Source: an uncultured Dehalococcoidia bacterium (GTDB taxonomy: Bacteria > Chloroflexota > Dehalococcoidia > DSTF01 > JALHUB01). From it: 64,000 nt of DNA. The stretch spans positions 30,079 to 94,078 of the forward strand of contig CAZMGB010000003.1 of the NCBI GenBank assembly GCA_964565775.1, written 5' to 3'. Position 1 is the first letter of the stretch, and every line of letters starts with the position of its first letter. The notes beneath the pieces are model-generated. The model saw only the letters and a list, made by a program, of their open reading frames with translations, was not told the DNA's origin and made no database searches. Below, piece after piece: positions 37,193 through 40,533 of this stretch. A program made the position numbers and the translations under genes.

Positions 37193-37637
37193 ACTACCAT
37201 GTGTCGTCAGCGACTTCCGGAGTTGCGGGGTGGCAATACCCCATCCGCATCTGGAACGCCGGCTGGCTGAACCGCCCACACGAGTTCTCCCTGGCCAGGC
37301 GTCGGATCAGATGTTGTCCTCTCCGGCGACGCGCTCGCCCCGGGGCCCGGGCTGCAGGGCGCGAGTATTCCATCTGTATCTGTAGGGTAGCCGCTGGGCT
37401 GATTCGGCCGGCCTCCGGTCTGGAGCGTGACCCTTTGGGGCCCACGAATTCGATCAGTATGGCTGTGATCCGTGCCGATCGAGTTCCTAGACCCGACAAG
37501 TGAGGCTCGCGAGGACGCCGTCTGCGCTCATCCAGTTAGATTCGGATTAGATTCCTGGCCCCCATAGGCGGGTTGGACGCGGGGGCGAATAGATGATAAA
37601 CTGAATCCAGTTACTCCACAGTACCGGGGGAGGGATC

Positions 37638-37973
37638 ATGGCCTACAAGGATCCGGCGGAACCGTTCACCAGGCTCAGCGCGGCTGAAGTGAGGCAGATG
37701 ATGGTGAACGGCGATGTCCAACTGATTGACGTGGGCGAGGCCAAGGAATATGGGCTGAAACACCTGCCGGGTGCCGTCCACATCCCCGTGGGCAAGGTCT
37801 ACGCCCGCCGCGATGAGCTGAGCGAGGACCGGGACATCGTTTTTGTCTGCCCCATTGGACAGCGCAGCGCCCTGGCCTGTGAGATGGCAGCGGCGGCGGG
37901 CCTCACGCGGCTCTACAACATGGAGGGTGGTATTGAGGCCTGGATCAAAGAAGGCTATCCCGTTGAGGAGTAG
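37638..37973 (+). CDS. Single-domain rhodanese-like sulfurtransferase
   Basis: SD 'GGGGGAGGG'. Active-site loop 'VCPIGQRS' (Cys-X4-Arg). About 110 aa. Confidence 0.8.
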   Translation: MAYKDPAEPFTRLSAAEVRQMMVNGDVQLIDVGEAKEYGLKHLPGAVHIPVGKVYARRDELSEDRDIVFVCPIGQRSALACEMAAAAGLTRLYNMEGGIEAWIKEGYPVEE

Positions 37974-38313
37974 AGCCGTTGCCGCTTTGGCCGTGCTCGA
38001 CGCCTGCTGGCCGCCGCGGCCTTCGCGCGGACCGAGCATGCCACTCGGTGGCTATGTTCGGGTGAGGCAACGTCTGCCAGACCGGCGGTCTCGTATGAGA
38101 CCTGCCGAGGATAGGGAGGCCAGACTGGAAAGCGGGACTCCCCCGACCGGGCTTCGAGGCCCTCCAGCCGGAACGGTGCCCACCTCGGACCGCCAGGTCA
38201 AAAGGGGAATTCCGGCTGGAGGGCGAGCTCGGGCTTCGCCGTCGGTCGCGGGCAACTGGGAACCGGGAGAGCGACATCAGCCAGCCTCGTTAGAAGGGAG
38301 GGGGTCTTAGCCG

Positions 38314-39240
38314 ATGGGCAGAATCGCCAACGACATCACAGAGCTGATAGGCAACACGCCGCTCGTCAGGCTGAACAAGATGGCCGCAGGCCTAGAGGCC
38401 ACCGTTGTGGCCAAGTTGGAGTCCTTCAACCCTTGCGGCAGCGTCAAGGACAGGATCGGCGTGTCGATGATCGAGGCCGCCGAGAGAGACGGCCGCATCG
38501 ACAACGACACGGTCATCGTCGAGCCAACGAGCGGCAACACGGGCATAGCCCTGGCCTTCGTCTGCGCCGCCAAGGGCTACCGTCTCCTCCTCACCATGCC
38601 GGACACAATGTCCCTCGAGCGAAGACAACTCCTCTCGGTCTTTGGGGCGGAACTGGTGCTTACGCCGGGGGCGGAGGGAATGCCTGGCGCCGTCCGGAAG
38701 GCTGAGGAGATCGTCGCCAGCAACCATCGCGCTTTCATGCCGCAGCAGTTCGTCAACCCCGCGAACCCCCTGATCCATCGTGAGACTACGGCCGAAGAGA
38801 TATGGCGCGACACGGACGGCCAGGTGGACATCCTAGTGTCCGGAATAGGGACAGGGGGAACGATCACCGGGGTGGCCGAGGCCATCAAGCAAAGGAAGCC
38901 GCAGTTCAAGGCCATAGCCGTGGAGCCGAGGGATTCTCCGGTTCTTTCAGGCGGCAGGCCAGGCGCTCACAAGATCCAGGGCATCGGCGCCGGCTTCGTC
39001 CCGGACGTGCTGAGGATGGACCTGGTGGATGAAATCATCCAGGTCAGCAACGAGGACGCGGGAGAGGCGGCGAAGGAACTGGCCAGGCATGAAGGGATCC
39101 TGGCAGGCATATCTTCGGGAGCGGCAGCCTGGGCGGCTCTCCAGGTCGCCAAGAGGGCGGAGAGCAAGGGCAGCTTGATTGTGACGATCCTGCCTGACAC
39201 CGGCGAACGTTATCTCACGACCTGGCTCTTCCAGCCTTGA
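38314..39240 (+). CDS. cysK: Cysteine synthase A (O-acetylserine sulfhydrylase)
   Basis: PLP-Lys motif '[11 protein letters not shown]'. '[10 protein letters not shown]'. '[10 protein letters not shown]'. 308 aa. Confidence 0.9.
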
Positions 39241-39549
39241 GGTAGTGTGCTGACATCCAGGGGGCCGGGCGCGGAGAGAGACCCGACGAGAAGTGTAGGT
39301 CACTTCCGTTGCGTGAGCGGCCAGGGCGCGGAACCGCGGTTGCGCTCGGCCCCTTCTTCGTTGGGGCGGGCGGGCCTCCCCAGCCCGGAGTCGTTCGCCT
39401 GGCATGAAGTCAAGGGCAGGAAAGATGTATCCTAGAGGGACATGACTATGCCTGCCGGGTAACCCCCTCGATACCCTGTCTTCGCTATCGTGTGGGGGAC
39501 AGGGACAGCCTGTCTATTCCTTTCGGCCACAAGATAAGGAGGCGCAAAC

Positions 39550-39921
39550 GTGTTCAAAGGTTGGCCGCCCTGCGACATCTGTGGCAAGCCTGTTGGCGAA
39601 AGGGATGGGACTCTCTCCGTCTGCTATCGCCGCATCGCCGCCTTCGACACGGCCCTCATGGAGTGGGAAAAGGAGCACCCTCACAAACTCGTCGACATGG
39701 GTTATCCTACCTTCCCCAATTCCGTTCCCTGGTTCTGGGGCCACAAGACCTGCTCCCCCGAAGCCTGCGATGGCAGCTGCAACTTCTGGATCGACGCCGT
39801 GACCCTGAACAGCGAGGGCAAAGTCCTCAACATGACCCTCCGCCTCCTGGAGAAGCCCTGGTTCCCAAACACCAATTGGGAACACGCCGTTCGCCGCCTA
39901 TATGACCTACCCCACGCCTAG
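39550..39921 (+). CDS. Hypothetical Cys-rich small protein
   Basis: SD 'AAGGAGG' 8 nt before the GTG. 'PPCDICGKPV...CYRR...CSPEACDGSCNFW'. No family recognised. Confidence 0.45.
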   Translation: MFKGWPPCDICGKPVGERDGTLSVCYRRIAAFDTALMEWEKEHPHKLVDMGYPTFPNSVPWFWGHKTCSPEACDGSCNFWIDAVTLNSEGKVLNMTLRLLEKPWFPNTNWEHAVRRLYDLPHA

Positions 39922-40533
39922 GAAGAATGCGACCGACCAAACGGGGCGGTTCTGAGATAGAGGAAGGCGCAGCAGAGCGATATTCCCTGTCCCTCAACGG
40001 AGCTGTGGGGTGCCAATACTCCATCCGTATCTGGGCACTTCGAACTGACCTTGTGCCTGGTACAAGAGCACAGGCCACGGATCCCTGAGCGGTGGCATCC
40101 GACCCTCTGTGTGATAGGCAGAAGTTCCCCGGTCCCCTTGCAGACCGCTCTGCGGCCAAGATAGAATCCCCTCGTCAGCCGATGGGCAGGGCGACTAGCG
40201 GATTCGCCCATATCCCAGGGTCTCTGGGTTGCCTCAGCACACTTCGGCAGGCAAGTTCATGGTCGATTGTTGTCGAAGGGACCCACAAGCCCTTGGCCGA
40301 GCCGCTAGGCAGACGATTCAAGAGGACAGGAGGCCCGAAAAGTCGCACCGCTTGAATCGACTCGCCGGGGAAGAGATCGCTGAATACAAAACAGGAGTCT
40401 GCCGCGGGATTTCTGCCCTGTTGAATGGGGTTCAAGAGGATGCGCGAAGACCCCTTCTCTTGGTTCTAGCGTGCCTGACGCATCGGCAGGCTCGTACGAG
40501 CAGCCAGTATGGCCCCGAATCCGGCACTCCGGC

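Follow-up and report, generated by a model that had tools for sequence, protein, structure and literature searches.

Repeat Copies around the Rhodanese, cysK and Transporter Genes

The window, which is the whole 64-kb stretch of DNA analyzed here, includes rhodanese and cysK genes, a Cys-rich ORF and, on the minus strand at 40828-41481, a succinate-acetate transporter gene. Two 37-nt sequences on the plus strand, 37218-37254 and 39998-40034, were originally predicted from the sequence alone to be copies of a conserved motif. The coordinates are right, and the two sequences are 32/37 identical. A degenerate consensus matches these two sites only in the 64 kb, with 0.00 matches expected (100 shuffles), and both sites are non-coding as predicted, since the GC3 frame plot indicates 37160-37640 and 39920-40830 as non-coding. 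In total, at least six related ends, all non-coding and spanning 37224 to 41614, were recognized in the window, while screening of the remaining 60 kb of the window with a profile HMM revealed no further copy.

Copy A (TGCGGGGTGGCAATACCCCATCCGCATCTGG; 37224-37254, plus strand) was found by both the pattern and the profile (37 bits), and the predicted unit 37218-37254 corresponds to this TIR plus 6 nt of outside flank. Sequence comparison revealed that copy A begins a truncated MITE body at 37224-37346 on the plus strand. Over 126 nt, this body is 83% identical to the MITE at L057 9015-9283, which is complete (269 bp) and is matched in its first half, and a reversed transposase-gene fragment lies inside it at 37284-37343. 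Copy C (TGCAGGGCGCGAGTATTCCATCTGTATCTGT; 37353-37383, plus strand; profile match, 30 bits) is a solo diverged TIR. A shorter third variant had been predicted here, and it does exist; its string, however, sits at 37361-37385 and not at 37364-37390. It is not a copy with the middle deleted, as had been proposed, but part of an ungapped full-length copy at 37347-37383, which is 27/37 identical to copy B.

Downstream from copy C, the 133 bp at 37434-37566, assigned to neither strand, form a complete MITE that belongs to a sister subfamily. In either orientation, its identity to L042 621-751 is 86%. The ends are TTTGGGGCCCACGAATTCGATCAGTATGG on the left (plus strand) and TATGGGGGCCAGGAATCTAATCCGAATCTAAC on the right (37535-37566, minus strand). 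The right end matches the left end and 5' UTR of subfamily-2 ISs (L117, L052, and L091).

Copy B (TGTGGGGTGCCAATACTCCATCCGTATCTGG; 40004-40035, plus strand; profile match, 47 bits) has many 100% matches of 32-33 nt elsewhere, including copies in L057, L066, L082, L026, and L011. It also begins a truncated MITE body, delimited by sequence comparison at 40004-40132 on the plus strand and sharing approximately 82% identity with the MITEs L083 1895-2275 and L103 3918-4051 across their first ~130 nt. The similarity ends at ~40132 without a right end. Copy D (TGCGGTGATAGGAATCCGTCCGTATCTGG; 41586-41614, minus strand) is a degenerate TIR recognized by profile match and comparison; as a 37-mer, 41586-41622 on the minus strand, it is 24/37 identical overall and 14/15 identical in the 3' half. 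It is adjoined by ACCTAGAGCGTTGACGCGGTGAGCTGCCGGGCC at 41553-41585 on the minus strand, a segment which, in comparison with intact ISs, matches the stretch between the TIR and the transposase start. Two contigs with 94% identity, L159 and L160, retain copy D in the corresponding place.

The window copies thus match specific element types beyond the TIR itself. The only element with two ends in the window is 37434-37566; there is no inverted partner for any of the copies A to D, which are therefore strictly TIR remnants rather than MITEs. No transposase gene was found within the 64-kb window. The possibility that A to D (37224-41614) bound one composite transposon was rejected, as a tRNA-Lys att boundary and the orthologously conserved copy D are located inside it or at its edge. 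The palindrome at 37181-37192 had been connected with the motif through the 8-mer ATCTGTAG. The 8-mer is indeed shared, but nothing beyond it is, and the palindrome is left out of the family because it lies outside the element. The 8-mer occurs four times in the window against 0.7 expected, a number reached in 1/100 shuffles, and is at most marginally enriched over chance.

Boundaries and Distribution of the Motif

The boundary of the motif was measured on 95 independent copies not selected by the pattern. The conserved stretch is ~31 nt long, with the consensus TGTGGGGTGCCAATATTCCATCCGTATCTG, and begins sharply at 5'-TGTGGGG: the first T of this string is the exact point where information content rises from <0.9 bit to >1.4 bit, and the values remain high for 30 nt.

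At least 120 metagenome contigs matched a degenerate pattern of the motif (~37 bits), and the full motif (≥33 bits) is present in 118/120 among the matches listed. Among 185,579 species-representative genomes, 14 full-motif loci were found, 12 of which are from Chloroflexota MAGs, mostly Dehalococcoidia; the remaining 11 species-representative matches score 16-22 bits, which is the chance level. The scan of viral contigs yielded two chance matches only, both in coding DNA. The IS/MITE family is abundant in Chloroflexota, mainly Dehalococcoidia. The copies are dispersed; for the 57 members of one subclass (class 1), 41 different contexts were counted upstream and 38 downstream. Contig L001, from the sequencing run SRR14802573, is identical to the window at ~38434-40674.

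The dispersal bears on another part of the original prediction, in which the motif could be a regulator-binding site. The motif would then be the operator of a host transcription factor for sulfur/cysteine genes, such as the product of the divergent gene 36666-37157, and the clustering of four copies in 4.4 kb near rhodanese and cysK fits this. However, elsewhere the same end is found beside transposases and unrelated genes, in dozens of contexts, rather than being confined to promoters of related genes. Copy B lies downstream of a gene, not upstream, and the orthologous rhodanese locus of a relative (L003) has no copy of the motif in its promoter. An asymmetric 31-nt site with >90% identity across >100 contigs with many different genes is also unlike operators. 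The operator explanation is highly improbable, and no link between the motif and the sulfur genes was found. The motif would be a protein-binding site only as a site for the transposase, not as an operator of a sulfur regulon.

Parent Insertion Sequence and Transposase

Inverted pairs of the motif bracket elements of 1170-1173 bp with a single ORF encoding an rve/DDE transposase of 345-346 aa. Four such ISs, L083 7551-8723, L122 12506-13676, L034 32-1203, and L151 1408-2577, are 1173, 1171, 1172, and 1170 bp in length, respectively. Their termini are TGTGGGG...CCCCACA, so that the parent IS has the 5'-TG(T)...(A)CA-3' ends and falls in the size range of ~1-1.3 kb. The transposase ORFs at L083 7646-8686 (346 aa) and L117 13314-14351 (345 aa) include an rve_3 domain (E = 1.5e-14 and 5.9e-15, respectively) and an N-terminal HTH, seen as HTH_32 with E = 4.3e-06 and 3e-06, both below the HTH_32 cut-off.

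The transposase or its fragments adjoin the motif in 22 loci (tblastn). More than 6,500 homologous transposase clusters were found, and many of them are on contigs of 1166-1180 nt, which is the length of the IS and a common sign of collapsed multi-copy repeats. The run SRR14802573, which also yielded contig L001, contains an intact IS with a matching TIR.

The closest known systems are the IS481 family and the related IS3 family in the sense of ISfinder, with the family features drawn from PMC10045372. It shares with them the length of ~1.17 kb, the single ORF with N-terminal HTH and rve-type DDE domains, the TIRs with 5'-TGT...ACA-3' termini, and the transposase stop codon ~12 nt ahead of the right TIR. 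The best NCBIfam matches are also IS481 (100.4 and 93.5 bits) and IS3 (98.3 and 92.8 bits), but these scores are far under the equivalog cut-offs of 224 and 160, respectively. The transposase is a distant relative that can be assigned to neither IS481 nor IS3 by the NCBIfam score, and the family assignment is therefore approximate. Another difference is an N-terminal hydrophobic Leu-rich segment (…LLFENLALRQQL…), which lies outside all Pfam models.

The nature of the associated gene also weighs on the interpretation of the motif as a REP/BIME-type extragenic palindrome mobilized by RAYT, a Y1 transposase. The motif is short and intergenic with a small hairpin inside, and some copies end with ...CTGTAG, as this interpretation would have it. 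However, the associated gene encodes an rve DDE transposase, not Y1/RAYT, the elements carry 30-bp TIRs with TGT...ACA termini, and the hairpin has no covariation support. No RAYT gene was seen in the loci examined, and the chance that the motif belongs to the REP/BIME type is close to nil.

Several other candidates were also dismissed. For a sigma-54 promoter, the reverse-strand TGGCAC has the wrong -12 spacing and sequence; for an ECF-type promoter, the -35/-10 spacing is wrong; and for a sigma-70 promoter, there is no TTGACA/TATAAT with 16-19 nt spacing. A T7-like single-subunit promoter followed by GGAGAG was also considered. All four promoter interpretations were dropped after the inverted partners and the transposase had been found. 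CRISPR, a tandem array, and integrase arm sites do not fit the irregular spacing, and for arm sites, copy B is also too far (614 nt) from the tRNA-Lys att fragment. Neither ARAGORN nor Rfam matched a tmRNA or tRNA at 40535-40692; this region corresponds to the 3' half of tRNA-Lys and an island arm conserved in L094.

MITEs and Related Short Elements

The motif also forms inverted pairs that are 154-381 bp apart without an ORF; at least 26 such pairs are non-redundant, and these short elements are MITEs. They are non-coding and dispersed, and their TIRs are those of an autonomous IS that co-occurs with them, including in the sequencing run of the contig identical to part of the window. One 212-bp MITE folds with a 30-bp terminal pairing (z = -6.3). 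The commonest one-ended unit consists of the TIR and ~135 nt ending in a terminator-like hairpin, and was found as 57 copies in 41 contexts.

Bacterial MITEs such as Correia elements, Nezha, and the Cardinium MITE (PMC9769881) are similar in their non-coding nature and in being short (154-381 bp in the present family), in the TIRs identical to those of a co-resident autonomous IS, and in the many dispersed copies, often nested in each other and in intergenic DNA. The present family differs from them in that no target-site duplication (TSD) was detected, several internal-sequence classes stand behind one TIR, and many copies are one-ended, with mostly truncated stumps in the window. Pneumococcal BOX and enterobacterial BIME/ERIC resemble it as intergenic, hairpin-containing repeats with a conserved terminal module and alternative internal modules (classes 1-4 here). 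In contrast to them, the present family has a recognizable autonomous parent that shares its ends and encodes a transposase, and therefore no separate mechanism is needed.

The original prediction had also proposed sRNA paralogues. The motif would accordingly represent a small structured RNA family or a cis-regulatory leader with a core GGGGU...AYYCC hairpin. The motif can be folded into a 5-bp hairpin, in which most copies retain G:C or G:U pairs despite C/T variation on the 3' side, and one common downstream class has a terminator-like hairpin ~103 nt past the ATCTG of the motif. Against this, Rfam gave no match at gathering or permissive thresholds. In the 95 copies, the 5' GGGG is invariant and there are zero double compensatory changes, while pairs 13-26 and 16-23 are broken in 17-23% of the copies. 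Folding is similar to that of shuffled sequences, with z between -1.4 and -1.8 for either strand of copies A and B (lowest -1.83) and a positive z for copy C. The motif is equally common as the inverted partner at the far end of the elements, and thus fits a TIR at the DNA level, not a 5' RNA domain. The motif matches no described ncRNA or riboswitch family and shows no covariation; the structured-RNA explanation is largely refuted and very unlikely. The class 1 downstream sequence (CUGGGAGAG...CGCCGAA...) has a glycine-riboswitch-like look, but Rfam showed no glycine match for the isolated unit, even at E ≤ 5.

Target Sites and Mobility

DDE/rve elements of the IS3/IS481 type normally make TSDs (PMC10045372), and lengths of 2-15 bp, mostly 6 bp, for IS481 and 3-5 bp for IS3 were taken as the criterion. 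No TSD of 2-32 bp at offsets 0-3 was detected in the 26 non-redundant TIR pairs, nor at five further IS insertions, which include two copies with identical transposases in one 2.57-Mb contig. In this respect, the parent IS differs from IS481 members. The flank identity of the 26 pairs is ~0.25 at every length ≥4 bp and 0.35-0.41 at 2-3 bp. Exact matches at 2-3 bp were seen in 3-5/26, near the expectation from the G+C-rich R-S-C bias of the flanks; both flanks show this weak R-S-C preference when read towards the element. Some of the copies tested may have had their flanks scrambled by recombination.

Empty sites were searched for with 16-nt flanks. Only nested or rearranged repeat contexts were obtained and no clean filled/empty pair, so that mobility is deduced from dispersal, not seen directly.

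In a further explanation, the IS/MITE family would integrate without TSD into short palindromic R-S-C|G-S-Y sites, which may often be hairpin centres inside other copies, and/or the commonest one-ended unit would be a transposon-borne small-RNA gene. This is considered improbable. If true, integration without TSD would represent an unusual strand-transfer geometry for an rve/DDE transposase, and the apparent absence of TSD is the only feature that a specialist might follow up.

Origin and Significance of the Window Copies

The motif is very probably the ~31-bp TIR of a family of small ISs (IS481/IS3-like) and their derived MITEs, and the copies in the window are insertion scars. The identity and boundaries of the motif, its association with the transposase, its dispersal, and the extent of each window copy are read directly from the sequences. 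The TIR would be the site bound and cleaved by the transposase; this binding, as well as the mobilization of the short elements, is inferred from the analogous DDE elements of the IS3/IS481 type, whose termini are TG...CA. Copies A and B represent two MITE stumps of the 5'-truncated type, copy C a solo end, copy D a decayed left end of an IS, and 37434-37566 a complete 133-bp MITE of the sister subfamily. All of these lie near the rhodanese and cysK genes, the Cys-rich ORF, and the transporter gene, within long intergenic spacers. As there is no partner end for the copies and no transposase within 64 kb, we infer that they are now inert.

Of the three possibilities raised originally for the repeat, the miniature mobile element was right, while neither the sRNA nor the sulfur-regulator site was supported. 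The family had also been described as flanking sulfur-metabolism genes. This position is a coincidence, because the long intergenic spacers there are open to insertion.

It is conceivable, though unlikely, that some ends have been co-opted locally. Copy D and the IS 5'-UTR segment, with its TTGAC(G/A), could provide or modulate a promoter for the succinate-acetate transporter gene, and the elements upstream of rhodanese and cysK could act as insulators, terminators, or promoter spacers. Copy D and the leader segment lie 72-134 nt upstream of the start codon of the transporter gene (the segment 41553-41585 itself 72-104 nt upstream of the gene) in the same orientation, and they are kept at 94% identity in two related contigs. 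The complete MITE stops ~20 nt ahead of a promoter-like block, ATAGATGATAAA, conserved with L003. However, retention in 94%-identical relatives is expected from descent alone, no recognizable -10 element is present at the right spacing past the TTGAC motif, and in L003 no element accompanies the rhodanese promoter block.

Only broken remnants are found between the sulfur genes, and the repeat is therefore an ordinary scar of mobile DNA, not a sulfur regulator or a small RNA. The unusually long non-coding spacers around rhodanese and cysK are explained as a pile-up of transposon remnants, and should not be taken for sulfur-responsive regulatory RNA or operators. The consensus of the TIR provides a compact signature for a repeat that is very common in uncultured Chloroflexota of the Dehalococcoidia type. 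This repeat breaks metagenome assemblies, as seen from contig L002, whose end lies within it, and from the many contigs with exactly the IS length, and it may mislead binning.

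Motif Copies in the Window

The two 37-mers at 37218-37254 (copy A) and 39998-40034 (copy B) are identical at 32 of 37 positions, as originally predicted, and both lie in non-coding DNA based on a GC3 frame plot, which places non-coding stretches at 37160-37640, 37975-38310, 39240-39550, and 39920-40830. The degenerate consensus of A and B matches only these two sites in the 64-kb window versus 0.00 expected from 100 dinucleotide shuffles. The string that had been taken for a shorter variant with the middle deleted is located at 37361-37385, inside a full-length, ungapped third copy (copy C, 37347-37383) showing 27/37 identity to copy B. 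A fourth, degenerate copy (copy D) was found on the minus strand at 41586-41622, and searching the window with a profile HMM of all four revealed no further copies. The palindrome at 37181-37192, which had been connected with the motif, shares the 8-mer ATCTGTAG with it and nothing beyond; this 8-mer occurs 4 times versus 0.7 expected, and a count of 4 was reached in 1 of 100 shuffles.

Distribution and Boundaries of the Repeat

The pattern GGGNNNNRRTAYYCCRTCYGYATCTG (~37 bits) was used for scanning. At least 120 contigs from a metagenome collection were matched, and among the matches listed, 118 of 120 contain the full motif (≥33 bits). From 185,579 species-representative genomes, 25 loci were obtained. 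Fourteen are full-motif loci at 37-51 bits: nine from Dehalococcoidia, three from MAGs labelled "Chloroflexia", and two contigs of one bin labelled Bathyarchaeia. The remaining 11 score 16-22 bits, about the chance expectation for the pattern. Two matches on viral contigs, both within coding DNA, were dismissed as chance. No description of this repeat in Dehalococcoidia was found in the literature. The acetyl-CoA synthetase encoded at 43353-45272(-) of the window belongs to a 90%-identity cluster that includes NCBI entries labelled Gemmatimonadales. The repeat family is almost confined to Chloroflexota MAGs, and the taxonomic assignment of either the source MAG or those bins is thus uncertain.

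In the aligned matches, the sequence left of the motif differs in each contig, conservation sets in sharply at 5'-(C)TGTGGGG, and a handful of recurrent sequence classes are observed on the right. Among 95 copies not selected by the pattern, the information content climbs from <0.9 bit to >1.4 bit exactly at the first T of TGT and remains elevated over 30 nt, and the three positions outside are weakly R-S-C. The motif therein corresponds to a terminal inverted repeat (TIR). A profile search of the fetched database loci detected 305 copies at E ≤ 1, many of them arranged as convergent inverted pairs.

Parent Insertion Sequence and Its Derivatives

Where inverted ends are paired at a distance of 1170-1173 bp, they bound an insertion sequence (IS) with one ORF of 345-346 aa, as in the database contigs L083 (7551-8723), L034 (32-1203), L151 (1408-2577), and, with a frameshift, L122 (12506-13676). 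The left TIR is followed by ~65 nt containing CGTTGACA, then by a GGAGG ribosome-binding site and a TTG start codon, and the stop codon is ~12 nt short of the right TIR. The protein contains rve_3 and HTH_32 domains, and in NCBIfam it scores highest against IS481 (100 bits, cut-off 224) and IS3 (98 bits, cut-off 160). In 22 loci, tblastn placed the transposase or its fragments alongside the motif. A sister subfamily (L117, L052, and L091) shows ~77% protein identity and has a variant TIR, CCTGTGGGGGCCAAGAATCTCATCCGWATCT. The transposase protein family includes >6,500 clusters at E ≤ 1e-10, with source names such as "putative transposase", "transposase InsO family protein", and "integrase [Dehalococcoidia bacterium]". 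Many of these clusters are on contigs of 1166-1180 nt, the length of the IS, as is typical of multi-copy repeats that have collapsed. An intact IS with a matching TIR is present in the sequencing run SRR14802573, from which contig L001, identical to ~38434-40674 of the window, also originates.

In at least 26 non-redundant pairs, the inverted ends are only 154-381 bp apart and no ORF lies between them; these are MITEs, short non-autonomous elements with IS-type ends. In the predicted fold of the 212-bp type, the ends pair over 30 bp (z = -6.3). The commonest internal class comprises 57 units in 41 distinct upstream and 38 distinct downstream contexts, with up to two per contig; the family is therefore dispersed, not syntenic. 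The TIR pair 1445 bp apart at 3922-5366 of contig L103 surrounds an alpha/beta-hydrolase gene (4289-5170) without transposase; it is a derivative that carries a passenger gene, or else the two ends are independent.

Units of class 1 (e.g., L031 13173-13490, and those in L014, L042, and L057) are not present in the window. The commonest sequence following the TIR, GGAGAGCGGCGAGTGGCAAACCAGGACCGCCGAATGCCGGCAGAGG..., has mutually exclusive pairings around CCUCUGCC, and around 20 class-1 copies end in a terminator-like hairpin, GGCTGGGC-GAAA-GCCCAGCC, plus a T-rich stretch ~103 nt after the ATCTG of the motif. No Rfam match was obtained for the class-1 post-TIR sequence. Class-1 units might represent a small RNA carried by the transposon.

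Identity of Each Window Copy

When the region was compared by BLAST with all fetched loci, repeat-derived DNA was seen only at 37219-37349, 37357-37387, 37425-37571, and 39992-40132; the other two matches, a cysK homologue and a tRNA-fragment region, are outside the repeat family. Copy A (TIR 37224-37254, body to 37346) corresponds to the first 126 nt (83%) of the 269-bp MITE type represented by L057 9015-9283; within it, 37284-37343 is a piece of the transposase gene in reverse orientation (82.5% to IS nt 384-446). Copy C is a solo, diverged end (37353-37383). A complete 133-bp MITE of the sister subfamily is at 37434-37566 (86% to L042, in both orientations), and at its right end it matches the subfamily-2 IS over that element's left end and leader. 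Copy B has a TIR at 40004-40035, of which 32-33 nt are identical to many copies elsewhere, and a body that runs to ~40132, lacks a right end, and is ~82% identical to the first 130 nt of MITEs from L083 and L103. Copy D is a degenerate TIR at 41586-41614(-) with the start of the IS leader, GAGCGTTGACGCGGTGAGCTGCCGGGCC, adjoining at 41553-41585; it is directed into the transporter gene, and two contigs of 94% identity have it at the corresponding position. No transposase was found in the window with tblastn, and the window copies are presumably inert at present. Among the three possibilities in the original prediction (sRNA paralogues, a regulator binding site, and a miniature mobile element), the last was the right guess: this is a real repeat family, and the copies are an ordinary mobile-element scar.

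No Target-Site Duplication Detected

No target-site duplication (TSD) of 2-32 bp at offsets 0-3 was detected among 26 non-redundant pairs. Their flank identity is near the 0.25 background at all lengths ≥4 bp and 0.35-0.41 at 2-3 bp, where the 3-5 exact matches out of 26 are close to the prediction from the G+C-rich R-S-C flank bias. Five further IS insertions, including two copies with identical transposase that are 11.6 kb apart on a single 2.57-Mb contig, also show no TSD. The flanks instead tend toward reverse-complementarity (…RSC|TGTG…CACA|GSY…), which could mean that the TIR extends outward with weak conservation or that palindromic targets are preferred. The search for empty sites yielded nested or rearranged repeat contexts only.

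The closest known systems are IS481/IS3-family insertion sequences and IS-derived bacterial MITEs, which share the size, the single-ORF rve transposase, the TGT...ACA inverted repeats, and the miniature derivatives. The sub-threshold family scores and the missing duplication are the differences. IS481 members normally generate duplications of 2-15 bp (PMC10045372), and therefore, the element is filed as IS481/IS3-like, not as a bona fide IS481 member.

DNA Site or RNA

The best-supported reading of the motif is a DNA site that would be bound and cleaved by the rve/DDE transposase, and it fits the TG...CA-type termini that IS3/IS481-type elements have (PMC10045372). Mobilization of the short elements would then occur in trans. 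Demonstrated so far are the boundaries of the repeat, its inverted-pair architecture, its association with the transposase, its dispersal, and the element type to which each window copy belongs. As an RNA, the motif has no Rfam match at gathering or permissive thresholds, and its single-sequence folds are unremarkable. The RNA reading fails among the 95 copies: the 5' GGGG is invariant while its 3' partner varies one-sidedly (C/T, also A or G), no compensatory changes are observed, and 17-23% of the copies have pairing disrupted at 13-26 and 16-23.

Gene Neighbourhood

Pfam searches identified a rhodanese (37638-37973), a PALP/CysK-type enzyme (38314-39240), a GPR1/FUN34/YaaH (succinate-acetate) transporter (40828-41481(-)), and an AMP-binding enzyme (41738-43309(-)), and left the Cys-rich ORF (39550-39921) without a family. 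Two short contigs were recovered via relatives of this ORF. In L002 (92% protein identity), the orthologous site carries the start of copy B, inside which the contig terminates. L003 (74% identity) encodes the rhodanese directly followed by the Cys-rich ORF; the motif is absent there and the upstream spacer is 100 nt. The only upstream likeness between L003 and the window is a promoter-like block, (g/c)(a/g)ATAGATGATAAA(c/g)T... (window 37589-37637, L003 455-505), ~40-50 nt upstream of the rhodanese start codon, which is likely to be the native rhodanese promoter. The 133-bp MITE ends ~20 nt upstream of this block. No link of the motif to sulfur metabolism was demonstrated.

The long GC-rich non-coding spacers at 37974-38313 (rhodanese/cysK) and 39241-39549 (cysK/Cys-rich ORF; conserved in L002) contain no IS/MITE-derived sequence and have no Rfam match. 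Candidate roles are a leader or regulatory RNA, or decayed genes. Elsewhere in the window, a 1389-aa ORF (17763-21932) contains six to eight ~204-nt tandem coding repeats (20262-21574) that share a D-x-N-G-D-G-like motif of FG-GAP/VCBS type, with Thr/Pro-rich low-complexity repeats on either side.

Repeated tRNA-Lys Fragment

A perfect 45-nt direct repeat at 712-756 and 40648-40692 corresponds to the 3' half of tRNA-Lys(UUU), covering the anticodon loop, T arm, acceptor, and CCA; ARAGORN found no complete tRNA in the window. An ORF for a tyrosine recombinase (Phage_integrase; 7-660(+)) ends 51 nt ahead of the first copy. In the 94%-identical contigs L159 and L160, the likeness to the window ends exactly at 40648. 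In the region 40516-40692, the 130 nt upstream of the second fragment are 72% identical to 1243-1418 of contig L094, which likewise ends in the tRNA-Lys 3' half. The 158-nt stretch 40535-40692 has an unusually stable fold (-74.8 kcal/mol, z = -4.5), and was not called as tRNA or tmRNA by ARAGORN or Rfam. This stretch is probably an integrative-element arm that has been conserved, but could be an RNA. The 45-nt repeats and the integrase ORF suggest integrative elements arranged in tandem at a tRNA-Lys att site. In that case, the intervening ~40-kb segment, which carries multihaem cytochromes, Ccm genes, and the rhodanese/cysK pair, would be a genomic island.
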